From Cytophagales bacterium (GTDB taxonomy: Bacteria > Bacteroidota > Bacteroidia > Cytophagales > Cyclobacteriaceae): a stretch of DNA of 64,000 bases. Made by a program: the position numbers and the translations under genes. Below are positions 7,698 to 14,957 of this stretch, piece after piece. Under the pieces are notes generated by a model. That model was not told the DNA's origin, did not search any database, and saw only the letters and a list, made by a program, of their open reading frames with translations. The stretch is from assembly GCA_022360015.1 (NCBI GenBank), contig JAKSDQ010000060.1, positions 13,922 to 77,921 on the forward strand, given 5' to 3'. Within the stretch, counting starts at the first letter, position 1. Each line of letters begins with the position of its first letter.

Positions 7698-8486
7698 ATG
7701 GGCACCTCCGTTAATTCAATCATGGCAATAACTATCTATCCAAAAAAAGAACAGGCCAGCGGCCAGTTTGCAGCAGGAGCCATCAAAGAAAACAAGCCAA
7801 TCGGTTTTCCGCACGAGGGAGGCGAGTTAAAGCCCTTTTCTTCCTTGTTTTACTGGGCCCATGCCTGGTCCGATCAAGGTGGGTTAATCGGGGAACATCC
7901 ACATCAGGGTTTTGAAATCATGTCTTTTGTATTAAAAGGTGAAATTGAACACTATGACTCGCAGTTACAAAGTTGGAAAAGGCTCCGGGCTGGTGACATG
8001 CAGATTATCAGGTCAGGAAAGGGCATATCCCATGCCGAGAGATTTTTGCCTGGTGCGCACATCTTCCAGATTTGGGTTGACCCGGACTTGAGAAAAACCC
8101 TGAACAATCCCGCTACCTACAGCGATTACAGGGCAGACAGCTTTCCGGAGTCAAAGGAATCCGGTTGTGTAGTCAGAACTTTAAAAGGGCCTGGTTCACC
8201 TTTAACGATGAATGCCAATATTGAAAGTATCAGAGAGCTCCGGTTTTCCGAGGGACACCACAGAATAGAAATAAACAACAAAAACATGCTGGGAATATAT
8301 GTGACCGAAGGATTCCTCTCGTTGAATGAAGAGGCCGTGGGGCAGGATGATTTTGTATTGATCAAGGAAGAAAAAGAGATTTCTGTAAGCAATGAATCGG
8401 TTGCCGGACTGTTTATTATAGAAGTTCCTGATAATCCGGGGTATGAAACCTATGCCAATATGCAGGGTATTTCAGCTAAAATCTGA
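7698..8486 (+). CDS. Pirin-family cupin
   Basis: HPHQGFE...HYDS and GKGISHAE...QIWV pirin motifs; the true start may be the downstream Met (MAITIYP). Confidence 0.85.
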   Translation: MGTSVNSIMAITIYPKKEQASGQFAAGAIKENKPIGFPHEGGELKPFSSLFYWAHAWSDQGGLIGEHPHQGFEIMSFVLKGEIEHYDSQLQSWKRLRAGDMQIIRSGKGISHAERFLPGAHIFQIWVDPDLRKTLNNPATYSDYRADSFPESKESGCVVRTLKGPGSPLTMNANIESIRELRFSEGHHRIEINNKNMLGIYVTEGFLSLNEEAVGQDDFVLIKEEKEISVSNESVAGLFIIEVPDNPGYETYANMQGISAKI

Positions 8487-8526
8487 TTTTTTTTAAATAA
8501 ACTGAACTTAAGTAATTTGAATTCCG

Positions 8527-8558
8527 TTTGGAAACATAACAATTACCTTTTATATTTG
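8527..8558 (+). promoter_or_regulatory. sigma-ABfr promoter of the sulfur-assimilation operon
   Basis: TTTG (8527-8530), 20-bp spacer, TATATTTG (8551-8558); 30 bp upstream of the riboswitch. Confidence 0.85.
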
Positions 8559-8587
8559 GAACTTCAAGTCAATTATAAGGTAATTGA

Positions 8588-8700
8588 TTTATAAAGAAGC
8601 GCGGAGAGACAGGCTCTGTGAAGCGCTAGCAACCATATCAAAAAGATACACATTGATAGAAGGTGCTAATTCCTGATCCCGAAAGAAGGGAGAATATAAA
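8588..8700 (+). ncRNA. SAM-I (S-box) riboswitch aptamer
   Basis: P1 TTTATA/TATAAA; conserved AAGA-GCGCGGAGAGACAGGCTCTGTGAAGCGC P2, AGCAACC...AAGGTGCTAATTCC P3/J3-4, and P4 TCCC/GGGA. It lies upstream of Met/sulfur genes. Confidence 0.92.
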
Positions 8701-8711
8701 TTAATGAAACA

Positions 8712-8825
8712 ATGAAAAATAACACAAATCTTTTAACAGCCAAAAAAGCCTCACTTTTGAGCCCCTCCATTATTCATAATGAGAATGATACTTTAATGTT
8801 TGGGTGTTGTTGCTGTTGTTGCTAA
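8712..8825 (+). CDS. Putative hexa-cysteine leader peptide (37 aa, MKNNTNLLTAKKASLLSPSIIHNENDTLMFGCCCCCC)
   Basis: Manual translation: ATG 8712, TGT TGT TGC TGT TGT TGC at 8805-8822, TAA 8823-8825. Too short for the ORF track. Confidence 0.75.
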   Translation: MKNNTNLLTAKKASLLSPSIIHNENDTLMFGCCCCCC

Positions 8826-8965
8826 TCAATACATTTTATCTTTCATGAAGGATAATCTGGCCTGAGACAAACTTGTCTCAGCGCAATCAAATTACATCAA
8901 ATCAATAATTTTCAGAAGAAACAGGCGAAGGAGTTAAATCCTGAACCGCTAAAACAAAGAGAAAA

Positions 8966-9313
8966 ATGGCATTAATGATTACTGACGAATGTATCAACTG
9001 TGGAGCTTGTGAGCCGGAATGCCCAAATACGGCCATTTACGAAGGAGGAATAAATTGGAAATGGGGGGAAGGCAATGGATTGACAGAAGTTACCGATGCC
9101 CATGGAAATGTAATTGATGCACAAGAAGATCAGGAACCAATTTCGGAAGACTTTTATTTTATTGTCAGCGGCAAATGCACCGAGTGTGTGGGGTTTCATG
9201 AGGAACCACAATGTGCCGCGGTATGTCCGGTTGATTGCTGTGTTGAAGATCCGGAACATGTAGAAAGTGAAGAAATGCTATTGACTAAAAAAGAAGGTTT
9301 ACATTTAGTTTAA
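8966..9313 (+). CDS. 2[4Fe-4S] ferredoxin (YfhL/Alvin-like, with insertion)
   Basis: [12 protein letters not shown] and [18 protein letters not shown] cluster motifs. Confidence 0.93.
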
Positions 9314-9341
9314 AAGGATAGATTGCGACAGCGCACTAAAT

Positions 9342-10520
9342 ATGAGTGAATTTAAACACATAGAAACGAAGGCCATCAGGACACAAAATGGCAAGGCATC
9401 ATACAGGGAGCATTGTGCGCCGATTTACATGACTTCAAGCTTTACTTTCGAAGATGCTGAGCAGGCCAGAGCACTGTTTGCAGACGAAATCGAAGGTAAC
9501 ATTTATACAAGGTTTTCAAACCCCAATAATTCAGAATTTGTAGAAAAGCTTTGCTTGTTGGAGGAAACCGAAGATGGTATCGCGACTGCCTCAGGCATGG
9601 CAGCTATGTTTTCCAGTATGGCTGCGCTGCTTAATTCCGGAGATCATGTGCTGGCTTCCCGTTCGGTGTTTGGATCCACACATCAGATCTTTACCCAAAT
9701 TTTTCCGAAGTGGGGCATTGAACACACCTACGCAAATATCAACGACCCGTCAGATTGGGAGGGAAAGATCAGAAAAAATACAAAAATGATTTTCGCTGAA
9801 ACACCTTCCAACCCGGGTTTGGATCTGATAGATATGGAATGGCTGGGAGGACTTGCGGAAAAGCATGGACTTGTCTTGAACATTGACAATTGTTTCGCCA
9901 CGCCCATACTGCAACAACCGTCAAAATATGGCGCGCAAATTGTGACTCACTCTGCCACCAAGTTTATGGATGGTCAAGGCAGAACCATTGGCGGGGCAAT
10001 TCTTGGAAAACGTGATTTGATTGACAAAATAAGGTTTTTTACAAGGCATACCGGACCTGCCCTGTCACCTTTTAATGGTTGGATACTTTCGAAAAGCCTG
10101 GAAACCCTGCCCTTGCGCATGGAAAGACACTGTGAAAATGCCATGAAAATTGCTGAATACCTTGAAGGACACGAGGAACTTGAGTCAGTTAAGTATCCAT
10201 TCCTAAAGTCACACCCGCAGTACGATTTAGCCAAAAAACAGATGAGATATGGCGGGGGGCTAATCACATTTGTGGTTAATGGTGGTTTGGAAAGGGGCCA
10301 AAGGTTCTTGAATAGTCTGGAAATGTTGTCGTTTACAGCCAATCTCGGCGACGCCAGAACCATCGCCACACATCCGGCCTCAACGACACATTCAAAACTT
10401 TCGGAAGAAGACCGGAAAGTTGTGGGTATATCTCCGGGCTTGATCCGTATTTCTGTGGGTTTGGAAAATGTCAATGATATATTGGAAGACATCGTAAACG
10501 CATTAAATGCCTCTAAATAG
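9342..10520 (+). CDS. metZ: O-succinylhomoserine sulfhydrylase (Cys/Met PLP enzyme)
   Basis: YTRFSNP, ASGMAA, HSATKFMDGQGR (PLP lysine), HPASTTH. MetZ-like within the trans-sulfuration family; substrate is inferred. Confidence 0.8.
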   Translation: MSEFKHIETKAIRTQNGKASYREHCAPIYMTSSFTFEDAEQARALFADEIEGNIYTRFSNPNNSEFVEKLCLLEETEDGIATASGMAAMFSSMAALLNSGDHVLASRSVFGSTHQIFTQIFPKWGIEHTYANINDPSDWEGKIRKNTKMIFAETPSNPGLDLIDMEWLGGLAEKHGLVLNIDNCFATPILQQPSKYGAQIVTHSATKFMDGQGRTIGGAILGKRDLIDKIRFFTRHTGPALSPFNGWILSKSLETLPLRMERHCENAMKIAEYLEGHEELESVKYPFLKSHPQYDLAKKQMRYGGGLITFVVNGGLERGQRFLNSLEMLSFTANLGDARTIATHPASTTHSKLSEEDRKVVGISPGLIRISVGLENVNDILEDIVNALNASK

Positions 10521-10524
10521 AACT

Positions 10525-10629
10525 ATGAGAATAAAAATATACTATATCGCTCCCCTTTGCTTGATTAACCTGTGTATGATGGCTTGTTTTTGTTGTTGTC
10601 GAAACTGTATCAGCAGGGAGCATCTGTAA
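10525..10629 (+). CDS. Putative Cys-rich attenuator leader peptide (34 aa, MRIKIYYIAPLCLINLCMMACFCCCRNCISREHL)
   Basis: ATG 4 nt after the metZ stop; 7 Cys codons including TGT TTT TGT TGT TGT; TAA 10627-10629, upstream of a terminator. Confidence 0.8.
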   Translation: MRIKIYYIAPLCLINLCMMACFCCCRNCISREHL

Positions 10630-10657
10630 TTTTATGCAAGTTTAGTATAAGTTTTAG

Positions 10658-10689
10658 AGCCTTCCTGCTGACACGGGAAGGCTTTTTTT
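10658..10689 (+). terminator. Attenuator terminator before the sulfite reductase
   Basis: AGCCTTCCTG / CGGGAAGGCT 10-bp stem, 6-nt loop, T7 tract (10683-10689). Its 5' arm can alternatively pair with 10611-10620. Confidence 0.9.
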
Positions 10690-10725
10690 GTGAGTTGTAA
10701 TCAAAGTATTAAACAATCTATAAAA

Positions 10726-12885
10726 ATGACACCAGAATTAAATAACAAAATTTCAACCGAAGCGAAAGAAGATATTCGCGAGTTGGCAGAGAAAATCAGT
10801 CGTTTTCGTGATGGCAAGATAGACGAAGAGAAGTTTAAAGCGTACCGGCTTACAAGGGGCGTGTATGGACAAAGACAATTAGGTGTGCAGATGTTTCGCA
10901 CCAAAATACCTTACGGCCGGCTTACTGCCGATCAATTGACACGGATAGCCGATATCTCGGAGAAATATACGAATGGTAACCTCCATACTACCACCAGGCA
11001 AAATATTCAATTGCATTATGTAAAGTTGGACGACAGTCCTGCCATTTGGACAGAATTAGAAGAGGTAGGGGTAACAGCCCGTGAAGCATGTGGTAATACT
11101 GTACGTAATGTAACCGGTTCTGCGCTGGCAGGAATCGATCCCAATGAACCTTTTGATATAACCCCCTATGCTGAATCCGTTTTCAGATATTTTCTTAGAA
11201 ATCCAATATGCCAGGATATGGGAAGAAAGGTAAAGATTGCTTTCTCTTCCAGTGACAAAGACTCGGCGTTCACTTATTTTCATGATTTTGGATTTATTCC
11301 GGTTGTGAAAATTGAGGATGGTAAGGAAATCAGAGGCTTTAAAACTGTGGTAGGTGGCGGCCTGGGTGCACAGTCTTTTGTGGCCAGGACTGCCCACGAG
11401 TTTTTACCTGAAAACCAGATTATCCCTTTCACCGAGGCAGCGCTCAGGGTTTTTGACCGTTATGGGGAACGTGAAAAAAGGTTCAAAGCAAGACTGAAAT
11501 TCTTAATAGATGAAAAAAGAGGATTGGGATTGGAAAAATTCCTTGAATTAGTGGAAAAAGAACGTAAGGCCATCCCCCACCAATCAATTGAAATTGACAG
11601 GACGCTGGTACCTGAGTTGGTGCTACCGGAAAAACAGGATTATTCTGATGTGACTATTGAGGAGGAAGAAAAATATCGGGATTGGCTAAAATCAAATGTA
11701 TTTGAGCAAAAACACAAAGGCTTTCATGGTATCCGGATCAAGTTAACAAACGGCAACATCGATGCGGAAAGAGCCAGAAAATTATCAGGTATCGTCAGAA
11801 AACATGCCGCCGATGACCTGAGGATCACAGTTAATCAGGGCCTGTTATTGAAATATATACCAACCAGCGCATTACCTCAGGTATTTAATGAATTAAACGC
11901 CCTGGGCCTGGCGGAATTTGGTTTTGGCACCATTGCTGACATCACAGCCTGCCCCGGAACAGATACCTGTAACCTTGGTGTAAGTAACAGCACCGGCGTT
12001 GCAGAAGCCCTGGAAAAAATCATCAGGGAAGAATACAAGGATTTAATCTTTGATGCAGACATTCATATTAAAATCAGCGGATGCATGAATTCATGCGGAC
12101 AACACATGGCAGCCAACATTGGTTTTCATGGAAGTTCAATTAAAAACGGACAACTGGTTGTACCGGCTTTGGTGGTATTACTTGGGGGTGGGGTCGACCC
12201 TGAAGGAAATGGGTTTGTCGCCGACAAAGTGGCCAAGCTACCATCAAAAAAGGCACCACAGGCGTTGAGAATTATTCTGGATGATTATAAGGAAAATGCG
12301 CTTCCGGGAGAGTACTTCAACAGTTACTATAAAAGATATGGTAAAATATATTTTTATGATCTGATAAAACACCTCATTGATCCGACTCAGCTAACGGAAT
12401 CGGATTATATCGACTGGGGGGGAACTGATAATTTTGTGCCAGCAGTTGGTGTGGGTGAATGTGCCGGTGTCAGCTATGACGTTGTCGGAACGATCATCGA
12501 GGATGCCACTGAAAAACTGGCGAATGGTGAAAAAGATCTGGCTGCCGATGAGTATGACAGGACGATTTATAATGCTTACAATACGTTTGTAATCGGTGCA
12601 AAAGCATTACTGTTAAGTGAAGATATCAGATGTAATACACATATTGGTATTATCAGGGATTTTGACAAACATTTTGTTGAAGCCGGCAAATTAACGCTTA
12701 ACGAAAACTTCGAAACCCTGGTCTTGCAAATCAATCAAAATACACCAAATGCAGATTTTGCAAAGCGATATCTGAAGCTGGCCCATGAATTTTTGCAGCA
12801 GGTTAAAACATACCGTGCCAATCAAATTGCCGGTGATGTCACACAGAAAGAAAAGCTGGTGGTAGATAATTTTTATAAAGCATAA
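10726..12885 (+). CDS. Ferredoxin-dependent sulfite (nitrite/sulfite) reductase with C-terminal HEPN-like extension
   Basis: RLTRGVYGQRQ, TTRQNIQLH, CPGTDTCNLG and KISGCMNSCGQH siroheme/4Fe-4S motifs. Start moved from GTG 10690 (on the terminator U-tract) to ATG 10726. Confidence 0.9.
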   Translation: MTPELNNKISTEAKEDIRELAEKISRFRDGKIDEEKFKAYRLTRGVYGQRQLGVQMFRTKIPYGRLTADQLTRIADISEKYTNGNLHTTTRQNIQLHYVKLDDSPAIWTELEEVGVTAREACGNTVRNVTGSALAGIDPNEPFDITPYAESVFRYFLRNPICQDMGRKVKIAFSSSDKDSAFTYFHDFGFIPVVKIEDGKEIRGFKTVVGGGLGAQSFVARTAHEFLPENQIIPFTEAALRVFDRYGEREKRFKARLKFLIDEKRGLGLEKFLELVEKERKAIPHQSIEIDRTLVPELVLPEKQDYSDVTIEEEEKYRDWLKSNVFEQKHKGFHGIRIKLTNGNIDAERARKLSGIVRKHAADDLRITVNQGLLLKYIPTSALPQVFNELNALGLAEFGFGTIADITACPGTDTCNLGVSNSTGVAEALEKIIREEYKDLIFDADIHIKISGCMNSCGQHMAANIGFHGSSIKNGQLVVPALVVLLGGGVDPEGNGFVADKVAKLPSKKAPQALRIILDDYKENALPGEYFNSYYKRYGKIYFYDLIKHLIDPTQLTESDYIDWGGTDNFVPAVGVGECAGVSYDVVGTIIEDATEKLANGEKDLAADEYDRTIYNAYNTFVIGAKALLLSEDIRCNTHIGIIRDFDKHFVEAGKLTLNENFETLVLQINQNTPNADFAKRYLKLAHEFLQQVKTYRANQIAGDVTQKEKLVVDNFYKA

Positions 12886-12887
12886 TC

Positions 12888-13655
12888 ATGAACGGCAAAT
12901 TAACATTGGTAGGTGCCGGTCCGGGAGACCCGGACCTGATTAGCATAAAAGGTATGAAGGCCATCAAAAAGGCTGATGTCATTTTATATGATGCACTGGC
13001 ACATCCGGACTTACTGGAGTATGCCCGGCCCGGCACCGAAAAAATTTATGTAGGAAAAAGGGCCGGATACCACTCCTACAAGCAGGAAGAAATAAATCAA
13101 CTGATTGTGGATCGTGCCCTGAGAGGAAATCATGTGGTAAGGCTAAAAGGTGGAGATCCTTTTGTATTTGCCCACGGAAAAGAAGAACTGGAATATGCAG
13201 AGACATTTTCTATTGAAACAGAGGCTATTCTTGGCATATCCAGTGTTAACCTGCCCGGCTTATATGGCATACCATTAACCAGAAGAGGCGTCAACGAGAG
13301 TTTCTGGGTAATAACGGCCACAACCAAAGACGGAACACTTTCCAAAGATGTTTTTCAGGCTGCCCGGTCAACCGCCACGGTAGTACTGCTCATGGGCCTG
13401 AAGAAGCTGGACCAAATTACCGCCATCTATAAAAAGTCAGGAAGGGGTAATCTTCCGGCAGCATTGATCTCAAAAGGATCACTGGAGGACGGGAACATTA
13501 TTTTTGGCACCGCAGCCACGCTTTTGTCAAAACAACAGGAACACCGGCTGCCAGGTCCTGCGATGATTGTAATCGGGGAAGCGGTAGGCACTCATGAATA
13601 TTTCTATGAAAAAATAAAAAACGTGGAGCGATTCAATAACCATCCAAAATTTTAA
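12888..13655 (+). CDS. cobA: Uroporphyrinogen-III C-methyltransferase (siroheme synthesis; CysG methyltransferase domain)
   Basis: LVGAGPGDPDLIS, YVGKRAG, VVRLKGGDPFVF. Confidence 0.93.
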   Translation: MNGKLTLVGAGPGDPDLISIKGMKAIKKADVILYDALAHPDLLEYARPGTEKIYVGKRAGYHSYKQEEINQLIVDRALRGNHVVRLKGGDPFVFAHGKEELEYAETFSIETEAILGISSVNLPGLYGIPLTRRGVNESFWVITATTKDGTLSKDVFQAARSTATVVLLMGLKKLDQITAIYKKSGRGNLPAALISKGSLEDGNIIFGTAATLLSKQQEHRLPGPAMIVIGEAVGTHEYFYEKIKNVERFNNHPKF

Positions 13656-13659
13656 CGCT

Positions 13660-14313
13660 ATGGAAAGGCTGTTTGACAACAACCATTATACATCGCTAAC
13701 ACCCCGGGAAAGGCTGGAAAAACTATTCAGTGAACATGATGAAGCCAAAATTCTTGTGACCTCTTCATTCGGAAGCACATCGGTTGTGTTATTGCACATG
13801 TTAAGCCAGGTGAAGCCGGGGCATCCTATTCACTTCGTTAACACTGGTTTTCTTTTTCAGGAAACCCTTGATTACAAAAAACAATTGATTGAAAAACTAG
13901 GGCTTAAGGTCATCAATGTCAAAGCCAGGGAAAACCGTCACAGATTCACCAGGGAAAACCAAAGCTGGCGGTTCAATCACGATTTATGTTGTTTTATCAA
14001 CAAAGTGGAGCCGGTTAACGAACTGAGGGCCTCCTATGATGTTTGGATTTCAGGGCTACTCGCGTTCCAAAATGCGAACCGGAGCAAAACCCGCATCTTT
14101 GAACCTAAAAAGGATATCGTTAAATTCCATCCTATCATAGACATGACCGCCGCAGAGGTGAGTTTATATATGACGATTTACGAACTCCCCAGCCACCCTC
14201 TTGTGGCCGAGGGATACGAATCCATCGGATGTACCCATTGCACCAGAAAAGGAAAAGGAAGAGAAGGCCGGTGGTTTGACAAAACAAAAACCGAATGCGG
14301 CCTCCATGCATAA
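13660..14313 (+). CDS. cysH: APS/PAPS reductase; the CC...CxxC pattern suggests the 4Fe-4S APS-reductase type
   Basis: TSSFG, FVNTG, DLCCFINKVEP, GYESIGCTHCT, REGRW and C-terminal ECGLH. Confidence 0.92.
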   Translation: MERLFDNNHYTSLTPRERLEKLFSEHDEAKILVTSSFGSTSVVLLHMLSQVKPGHPIHFVNTGFLFQETLDYKKQLIEKLGLKVINVKARENRHRFTRENQSWRFNHDLCCFINKVEPVNELRASYDVWISGLLAFQNANRSKTRIFEPKKDIVKFHPIIDMTAAEVSLYMTIYELPSHPLVAEGYESIGCTHCTRKGKGREGRWFDKTKTECGLHA

Positions 14314-14352
14314 ATGGAGTGTGGGTGTGGGTGTCAGTGTGGGTGTGAGTGA
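14314..14352 (+). other. Micro-ORF MECGCGCQCGCE coinciding with a GTG(G/A)GT-type hexamer repeat
   Basis: TAA(14311-13) ATG GAG TGT GGG TGT GGG TGT CAG TGT GGG TGT GAG TGA; whether it is translated is unknown. Confidence 0.4.
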
Positions 14353-14423
14353 TCTTCCTGTCCCATAGGGGCAAAATATTGGTAGTACAAGGTTTTAATC
14401 AACGGCAATCGCTTTTGAAGCCT

Positions 14424-14957
14424 TTAAACGAATTGCGTTTTCACAAAAAAATCCCAGACCACAATCCCGATGCTGACAGAAATGTTTAAAGAATGTTTGG
14501 TGCCAAACTGGGGAATTTCAAGGCATATATCAGAAAGAGCTACGGCAGCATCATCCACACCAAAGGCTTCATTGCCAAATATAAAGGCATATTTTTTATC
14601 CTTTCCAGGTTGAAAATCCTGGAGCATCAGCCCATCTTGCACCTGCTCTATTGACACAATAATGTAATCCAGGGATTTAAGACGATTTATCAGGGTCATT
14701 GTGCTCTCCACGTGCTCCCAATCAACAGATTCCGTGGCACCAAGGGCGGTTTTGTGGATTTCACGATGAGGGGGACTGGCCGTAATACCACATAGAAAAA
14801 TCTTTTCAACACAAAAAGCGTCCGAAGTACGAAATGCAGCACCTACGTTGTTCATACTTCTCACATTGTCAAGCACGACAACTAACGGAATTTTTTTCTT
14901 ATTTTTGAATTCCTCGACAGAAATTCTGTTGAGTTCTTCGTTACTGAGTTTTCTCAT
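14424..14957 (-). CDS. TrmH/SpoU-family RNA methyltransferase
   Basis: VVLDNVRSMNNVGAAFRT, FIFGNEAFGV, IPQFGTKHSLNIS. Start moved to ATG 14957 because a TATCTTTG element at 14986-14979 overlaps the ORF-track start. Confidence 0.9.
   Translation of the reverse strand: MRKLSNEELNRISVEEFKNKKKIPLVVVLDNVRSMNNVGAAFRTSDAFCVEKIFLCGITASPPHREIHKTALGATESVDWEHVESTMTLINRLKSLDYIIVSIEQVQDGLMLQDFQPGKDKKYAFIFGNEAFGVDDAAVALSDICLEIPQFGTKHSLNISVSIGIVVWDFFVKTQFV

Follow-up and report, generated by a model that had tools for sequence, protein, structure and literature searches.

The 64,000-nucleotide stretch of DNA analysed here (the window; contig JAKSDQ010000060.1) belongs to a 7.3-Mb Cytophagales genome whose closest named relative is Agaribacillus aureus (83% identity in sulfite reductase), and on its forward strand, between positions 8527 and 14352, lies a sulfur-assimilation gene cluster, fdx-metZ-sir-cobA-cysH. 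A promoter, a SAM-I riboswitch (an aptamer for S-adenosylmethionine, SAM) and a short open reading frame (ORF) that ends in a run of cysteine codons (leader ORF 1) precede fdx, and a second cysteine-rich short ORF (leader ORF 2), followed by a transcription terminator, stands immediately before sir. We consider it probable that the five genes form one operon, transcribed from a single promoter and controlled at two RNA-level checkpoints.

The first gene, fdx (8966–9313, + strand), encodes a 115-residue ferredoxin of the YfhL family with two [4Fe-4S] clusters (NF033683, 101.9 bits, above the 86-bit cutoff), and the second (9342–10520, +) encodes a 392-residue metZ-like O-succinyl/acetyl-homoserine sulfhydrylase, a pyridoxal phosphate (PLP) enzyme of the Cys/Met family (PF01053, E = 1e-124), for which O-succinylhomoserine sulfhydrylase NF006003 is the best fit at 496 bits, slightly below the 522-bit cutoff. 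The product of sir (10726–12885, +) is a ferredoxin-type assimilatory sulfite reductase of the NirA family (PF01077, PF03460; NF007126, E = 6.9e-74); its frame is open from a GTG at 10690, relatives align from residues 4–26, and the ATG at 10726 is the likelier start. Behind it follow cobA (12888–13655, +), for a uroporphyrinogen-III C-methyltransferase of the siroheme branch (NF004790, 237.5 bits, cutoff 198; TIGR01469, 232.5 bits, cutoff 185), and cysH (13660–14313, +), for a phosphoadenylyl-sulfate (PAPS/APS) reductase (NF002537, 209 bits, cutoff 154). These profile matches bear out the gene identities (ferredoxin, metZ, sulfite reductase, siroheme methylase, cysH) given in an initial annotation of the window. 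For comparison, we collected the neighbourhoods of 80 Sir homologues (80 loci, numbered individually with the prefix L), drawn from Cytophagales, Saprospiraceae, Chitinophagales and unclassified Bacteroidota. A C-terminal extension of Sir of about 180 residues (residues about 560–731; window 12400–12885) matches no Pfam or NCBIfam model and has the same length in all 80 homologues, with alignments reaching residue 731. The cobA and cysH genes are adjacent in the window and in L001 and L002; in most relatives (L003, L006–L012 and others) they are separated by a gap of about 650 nt that possibly holds another gene.

The promoter (8527–8558, +) is of the Bacteroidetes type, with a −33 element TTTG at 8527–8530, a 20-nt spacer and a −7 element TATATTTG at 8551–8558. 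In a motif search for TTTG-N17-23-TAnnTTTG it is the sole full match in 8300–14500, in agreement with the one consensus promoter claimed earlier, and a sigma-70 scan picks it up as well; the region before leader 2 (10300–10730) contains no TAnnTTTG motif by the same kind of search. The −7 motif lies 33–37 nt 5' of the aptamer in 10 of the 37 SAM-I copies that were checked for it, including those of the window, of a paralogous unit elsewhere in the genome (contig C244, described below) and of L001–L003.

The SAM-I aptamer (8586–8702, +), which had been recognised by eye, is matched by the Rfam model RF00162 over its full length (model positions 1–108) with 75.7 bits, above the gathering score of 44.4 (E = 5.6e-16), and the same model scores 56–77 bits in 12/12 relatives scanned; other Rfam families give only sub-threshold noise in 8480–10760. 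Immediately upstream, a conserved hairpin that we call P0 (8566–8590, +; AAGUCAAUUAU / GUAAUUGAUUU; RNAfold −7.4 kcal/mol) has a 3' arm that shares nucleotides with the 5' strand of P1, the closing helix of the aptamer, and of an extension of that helix. The pairing between the two arms of P0, TCAATTAY (alpha) and RTARTTGA (beta), is perfect in 14 of the 24 loci with exact aptamer boundaries. In relatives, P1 extends about 5 bp past the Rfam model; the five pairs are almost always standard, and the third covaries (A-U 12, G-C 6 and U-A 1 among 20 distinct sequences). The window's extension consists of 8583–8585 paired with 8703–8705, plus 8581:8707. P1 proper (GATTTATA/TATAAATT) hardly varies in sequence among the 35 loci with SAM-I, which is unusual for a P1 helix.

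The 3' strand of the extended P1 stops 3–6 nt 5' of the leader AUG across loci and 4–6 nt 5' of the AUG of leader 1 in the window. Predicted energies for the window are −34.7 kcal/mol for the P0 state and −33.0 kcal/mol for the state with P1 and its extension, a gap of 1.7 kcal/mol that makes the two nearly isoenergetic, and in fold modelling positions −18 to −1 of leader 1 are 85% unpaired with P0 and 36% unpaired with P1 and its extension enforced. A terminator scan found no terminator-like site on the + strand in 8702–8966, that is, no intrinsic terminator/antiterminator of the S-box type. Initiation in Bacteroidota relies on unstructured A/U-rich regions and not on Shine-Dalgarno sequences. 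We propose P0 as a candidate anti-sequestor and the extended P1 as the sequestor; because the P1 extension reaches close to the AUG, competes with P0 and changes the modelled accessibility of the initiation region, SAM binding probably represses translation of the upstream ORF, leader 1.

Leader ORF 1 (8712–8825, +) has 37 codons, encodes MKNNTNLLTAKKASLLSPSIIHNENDTLMFGCCCCCC (MKNN...MFGCCCCCC) and begins 9 nt past the aptamer, as the hexa-Cys leader reported after SAM-I. Its run of six TGY codons (8805–8822), directly before the stop, is matched in length by no other in the 7.3-Mb genome; three-codon TGY runs do arise by chance, nine of them in the window on both strands. A 3-codon ORF (ATG AAA CAA TGA, 8704–8715) in another frame overlaps the start of leader 1, in the part of the RNA that an extended P1 would cover. 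The post-leader region (8836–8914, +) comprises hairpin A (8836–8855), hairpin B (8862–8881) and a 31-nt, G-free, C/A-rich stretch (8884–8914). Neither the terminator scan nor folding revealed an intrinsic terminator after leader 1 in the window, hairpin B being without a U tract, and in relatives no consistent terminator follows the SAM-linked leaders. Across 34 leaders, the 70 nt after the stop contain 23.5% C and 14.4% G, compared with 16.4% C and 18.3% G in the upstream background of the genome, and some Marinoscillum post-leader spacers are wholly without G. The genome encodes rho (667 bits), and by its composition 8884–8914 is a candidate Rho loading region. We considered, and dropped, a pairing at long range between hairpin A and the 3' strand of P1: it is present in the window and in L001 and, by inspection, absent in L004 and L007.

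Leader ORF 2 (10507–10629, +) overlaps the 3' end of metZ and has in-frame ATGs at 10507, 10525 and 10576; its peptide reads ...IAPLCLINLCMMACFCCCRNCISREHL, ending ...MMACFCCCRNCISREHL before the stop, and has seven Cys in the last 25 codons, with a CCC run at 10591–10599. In L001 and L002 its orthologue reads ...PLCMINICMMVCFCCCRNCISRGFL. The attenuator RNA (10549–10689, +) includes segment 1 (10549–10565), segment 2 (10609–10621), a terminator with a 9-bp GC-rich stem (10659–10667/10674–10682) and a T7 tract (10683–10689), found just 5' of sir by the terminator scan at −14.6 kcal/mol, and a competing antiterminator in which CAGCAGGGAG (10611–10620, the last codons of leader 2) pairs over 10 bp with 10661–10670, the terminator 5' arm plus loop. 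The antiterminator duplex has a predicted energy of −17.3 kcal/mol, whereas shuffles give −7.4 (z = −4.3). Masking 10577–10610, to mimic a ribosome held up on the Cys codons, makes the antiterminator the fold of lowest energy, and masking 10612–10642, to mimic one that has reached the stop, yields the terminator. In the unmasked fold, representing RNA free of ribosomes, 10549–10565 pairs with 10609–10621 and the terminator forms, from which termination appears to be the default. The earlier description of a second Cys-rich leader with terminator and antiterminator is confirmed by these switching folds, and leader 2 is, as judged from its sequence, a classical leader-peptide attenuator. Met codons, often as MM, stand directly before the Cys run in many leaders (MMACFCCC, MMCCCCCCCC, MMACCCCCC; L022, L027, L031, L036, L046, L048, L075, L080 and the window at 10576–10581); such leaders may read Met-tRNA besides Cys-tRNA.

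Conservation of the Cys runs had been set beforehand as a test of the proposed control, and both runs are kept in relatives. Poly-Cys mini-ORFs occur at the same positions in 77/80 loci; since the remaining residues and the peptide lengths diverge around them, they are more than chance occurrences. SAM-I, sought in relatives by nhmmer with a profile of 13 aptamers that Rfam had confirmed, is present in 35/80 loci, and in 32 of these 35 a poly-Cys ORF follows, its ATG 7–12 nt past the aptamer and its Cys run 0–6 codons from the stop, with total lengths ranging from 20 to 56 codons. The three SAM-I loci without Cys runs keep a short ORF (MIHSYF...) that starts about 10 nt past the aptamer. The leaders proximal to sir, unlike the SAM-linked ones, continue for 8–15 codons after the Cys run; 63 of 69 are followed after the stop by a hairpin of −7 kcal/mol or lower and a T tract, and antiterminator complementarity is significant against shuffles in 42 of the 63 loci (mean z −2.27). 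The terminator sequences vary among lineages and the hairpin is kept.

Ordered by their arrangement, with L denoting a Cys leader, the 80 loci fall into L-sir (21 loci), L-L-sir (21), SAM-L-L-sir or SAM-L-sir with an interrupted second leader (10, in Marinoscillum and allies), SAM-L-fdx-metZ-L-sir, the layout of the window (9), SAM-L-fdx-metZ-sir (5), SAM-metZ-L-sir (3), SAM-L-metZ-sir (3), SAM-L-metY-like-metZ-L-sir (2), SAM-L-metZ-L-sir (2), SAM-L-fdx-sir (1) and loci without a detected leader (3). One of the SAM-L-L-sir loci, L047 (PBTY01000042.1), comes from a metagenome-assembled genome (MAG) labelled 'Rickettsiales bacterium'; its layout and leaders are nearly identical to those of Marinoscillum pacificum (L043), and it is probably a mis-binned contig.

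Cys leaders also occur elsewhere in the genome that contains the window. A second, near-identical SAM-I/P0 unit with the same promoter spacing lies on contig C244 (52296–52554, +), 5' of metY-metX-hom, where metY encodes an O-acetylhomoserine sulfhydrylase, and its leader ends ...HLSRCCCCYIIP (...RCCCCYIIP, then the stop). On contig C224 (165580–169000, +), a Cys leader, MYKSFQTCCCSCCCFRYHGGKENHIR (MYKSFQTCCCSCCCF...), to which a terminator and an antiterminator of 9 bp (GUGGAAAGG:CCUUUCCAC) belong, precedes cysM-mec-cysO-moeZ, an operon for CysM, a JAMM/Mov34 protease, a ThiS-like protein ending in GG, and MoeZ; by analogy, it resembles the CysO-thiocarboxylate-dependent cysteine pathway of Mycobacterium, and its leader is kept in 6/6 orthologous cysM loci of relatives. 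A genome-wide scan for Cys-rich small ORFs with terminators returned only the sir and cysM leaders and one probable chance hit (contig C122). The SAM-I copy before metH (C166) has no Cys ORF, and cysC-cysD-cysN (C274), where the 115-nt cysQ/cysC intergenic region was examined, has no Cys leader. Since leaders are found before sir, metY and cysM and none at metH or cysC-cysD-cysN, Cys leaders mark the steps that make or incorporate sulfide. These loci also bear on the suggestion that sulfide enters by direct sulfhydrylation of homoserine esters, which had been made from the window and proves incomplete, as the cysC-cysD-cysN genes and the CysO-dependent cysM operon are encoded elsewhere in the genome.

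The explanation that we favour starts from what is observed, namely the elements, their geometry, their conservation and their covariation; from these we infer the responses to ligand and to tRNA, the coupling of SAM to translation and the role of Rho. Checkpoint 1 (8566–8914) would join a SAM-I riboswitch to a poly-Cys leader ORF in one composite. With SAM bound, P1 and its extension would form and occlude the A/U-rich initiation region, leaving leader 1 untranslated; with SAM absent, P0 would form, leader 1 would be translated, and its six terminal Cys codons would report the charging of Cys-tRNA. Leader 1 RNA that is naked or has been vacated could, as in tna, be open to Rho, which would terminate transcription within the C-rich, G-poor sequence 3' of the stop unless a ribosome stalls on the Cys run; expression of fdx-metZ would then require that neither SAM nor Cys be abundant. 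This tna-like, Rho-dependent output of leader 1 is our best guess, which we hold tentatively as something close to an even call. Checkpoint 2 (10507–10689) would act as a leader-peptide attenuator of the trp type: stalling of a ribosome at the Cys codons of leader 2 would leave 10611–10620 free to pair with 10661–10670 as antiterminator, and with a ribosome at the stop, or none, the terminator would form before sir-cobA-cysH.

Part of what the initial annotation had read into the locus is compatible with this scheme. Its proposal that the sulfide-producing genes are gated more tightly is a reasonable inference from the layout, in which sir-cobA-cysH lie behind both control points and fdx-metZ behind the first only. 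Its picture of one transcript integrating SAM once and Cys twice holds insofar as SAM-I and two Cys-codon leaders stand in series on an apparently single transcript; leader 1 is not a terminator/antiterminator attenuator as leader 2 is, and the third tier that it had added, a Cys-alternating micro-ORF after cysH, falls away (see below). The module of SAM-I and leader is found before fdx-metZ, metY-metX-hom, fdx-sir or metZ, or directly before the second Cys attenuator. More tentatively still, and with somewhat less than even confidence, we suggest that SAM-I gates the translation of a sensory ORF in a movable two-input sensor with a Rho-type output, and that this sensor may be part of a Cytophagales-wide 'cysteine attenuon' that includes the CysO-dependent operon.

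Several points weigh against the scheme. The window's own P1 extension amounts to only 3 bp, a mismatch and 1 bp; for the output of checkpoint 1, neither a terminator nor an above-background pairing with fdx was found; and the C-over-G skew after the stop is moderate, its background having been drawn from one genome. A weak internal promoter beyond the reach of the motif search may lie 5' of leader 2. The relatives are phylogenetically non-independent, so that the counts overstate the number of independent observations. A strict gate requiring neither SAM nor Cys also looks awkward for metY-metX-hom when Cys is plentiful and Met scarce.

The shortness of the window's P1 extension would fit a view of checkpoint 1 as independent modules in series, in which SAM-I has an output of its own (such as RNA stability or Rho), leader 1 senses Cys separately and it means nothing that the AUG of leader 1 lies near P1. 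We regard this as unlikely: the ATG is fixed at 7–12 nt from the aptamer in 32 loci despite the wide range of leader lengths, the P1 extension covaries and reaches to within 3–6 nt of the AUG, there is no terminator between aptamer and leader 1 or after leader 1, and even the three loci devoid of Cys runs have a short ORF about 10 nt past the aptamer. A second alternative takes leader 1 for a translational attenuator of the mycobacterial type, in which the UGY run pairs with the initiation region of the next gene until a stalled ribosome frees it. As in Mycobacterium, the Cys run adjoins the stop and no terminator follows (PMC1262725; bioRxiv 10.1101/834739); the paralogous metY leader shows complementarity of −14.2 kcal/mol (3.6th percentile, above background), and in several Marinoscillum loci ACAACAAC stands 5' of the next AUG. 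In the window, however, the duplex between the Cys run and the fdx initiation region reaches −9.2 kcal/mol, the 59th percentile of 2339 control initiation regions and not above background, and the fdx start is 140 nt away with two hairpins between, so that we judge this mechanism quite improbable here. It is scarcely credible that the poly-Cys ORFs are functional Cys-rich micropeptides (metal or sulfur binding), or their UGY runs an untranslated RNA- or protein-binding motif, and not tRNA-charging sensors: UG-rich repeats are able to bind proteins, but conservation is limited to the Cys codons and their position while other residues and lengths vary, all runs share the frame of a start 5' of them and of a stop close by, with TGT/TGC synonymy and whole-codon length differences, they are coupled to terminator and antiterminator at ribosome-footprint spacing, and they occur only before sulfur-incorporating genes.

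Leader-peptide attenuation and SAM-I riboswitches are textbook principles, and the system described here is an extension of these and of the actinobacterial poly-Cys leaders, not a new category. Leader 2 shares with trpL, hisL, pheL, thrL and leuL of E. coli and Salmonella a short ORF rich in codons for the product, mutually exclusive 1:2, 2:3 and 3:4 pairings, a U-tract terminator before the first structural gene and termination as the default if the ORF is untranslated; it differs from them in sensing cysteine, in belonging to Bacteroidota, in its mid-operon position after metZ and in having no sequence homology. In searchable papers we found no description of a terminator-type cysteine attenuator.

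Leader 1 resembles the poly-Cys leaders of actinobacteria, with which it has in common a Cys run by the stop, sulfur or cysteine genes downstream and no terminator hairpin (PMC1262725; bioRxiv 10.1101/834739). For actinobacterial Cys leaders without terminators, tna-like Rho-dependent termination has been proposed (Seliverstov et al. 2005, PMC1262725), and the mycobacterial poly-Cys ORFs are leaderless and act by masking a downstream Shine-Dalgarno sequence (Canestrari et al. 2020, bioRxiv 10.1101/834739); according to the latter study, no earlier description existed of attenuation by an upstream ORF for cysteine. In contrast to these leaderless ORFs, leader 1 has a structured 5' region of 140 nt with SAM-I, no Shine-Dalgarno sequence and no pairing with the fdx region; it is not leaderless, as SAM-I separates its AUG (8712) from the −7 box, whose last position is 8558. 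The aptamer is like that of the Firmicute S-box (RF00162) in being full-length, high-scoring and placed before methionine and sulfur genes, and differs in its apparent platform, a P1 extension competing with P0 at the start of a sensory upstream ORF and not of an enzyme gene.

Composite leaders are known from Salmonella mgtA and mgtCBR, where a metabolite-sensing RNA (for Mg2+ or ATP) and a codon-sensing ORF (the proline-codon mgtL or mgtP) share a leader (PMC3641672). In mgtA and in E. coli tnaC the output is Rho-dependent termination set by the place where the ribosome stops, a role that Rho may also have here. Ligand, amino acid and phylum of mgtA/mgtCBR and tnaC differ from those of checkpoint 1, in which it is apparently the start of translation of the sensory ORF that the riboswitch controls. 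The tandem of SAM and adenosylcobalamin (AdoCbl) riboswitches before Bacillus clausii metE (PMC9481103) likewise places two OFF sensors in series with a 'neither ligand' logic. Both of those sensors, however, are aptamers with terminators of their own, whereas here a ribosome would be the second sensor, the first module is terminator-less and an additional attenuator stands within the operon. A full-text literature search found no description of Cys leaders or of composites of a SAM riboswitch and a leader ORF in Bacteroidota, nor of a SAM riboswitch coupled to a leader ORF at all, in keeping with the initial annotation, which knew of no published riboswitch-plus-attenuator architecture in the phylum. 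Rfam 15 has no family for either leader, and a transcriptome paper on F. psychrophilum speaks of leader-peptide attenuation upstream of amino-acid operons in general terms only.

To our knowledge, next to nothing has been charted of how Bacteroidota regulate sulfur assimilation. The Cys leaders at the sir loci, and in this family also at cysM and metY, suggest that this regulation is largely RNA- and ribosome-based. The composite at checkpoint 1 offers a testable answer to how a riboswitch may act where Shine-Dalgarno sequences are not used, by an extended P1 that would occlude the A/U-rich initiation region of an upstream ORF, and if true it would be a natural two-input gate that combines a metabolite aptamer and a tRNA-charging sensor in one leader. 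For annotation, the leaders flag mini-ORFs that gene callers overlook.

The micro-ORF that follows cysH (14314–14352, +; MECGCGCQCGCE) was rejected as a regulatory or peptide element. It is a simple tandem repeat, (GTGTGG)5.5 (TRF 14319–14351, period 6), absent after cysH in 13 relatives, and no gene lies 3' of it on the + strand, the only gene to follow being a convergent one for a SpoU methyltransferase. Short tandem repeats of the GTGTG[GA] hexamer, which may be mini-satellites, REP-like elements or G-rich structures, are dispersed through the genome, with at least eight other sites (for example, C233:4324 and C274:141265).

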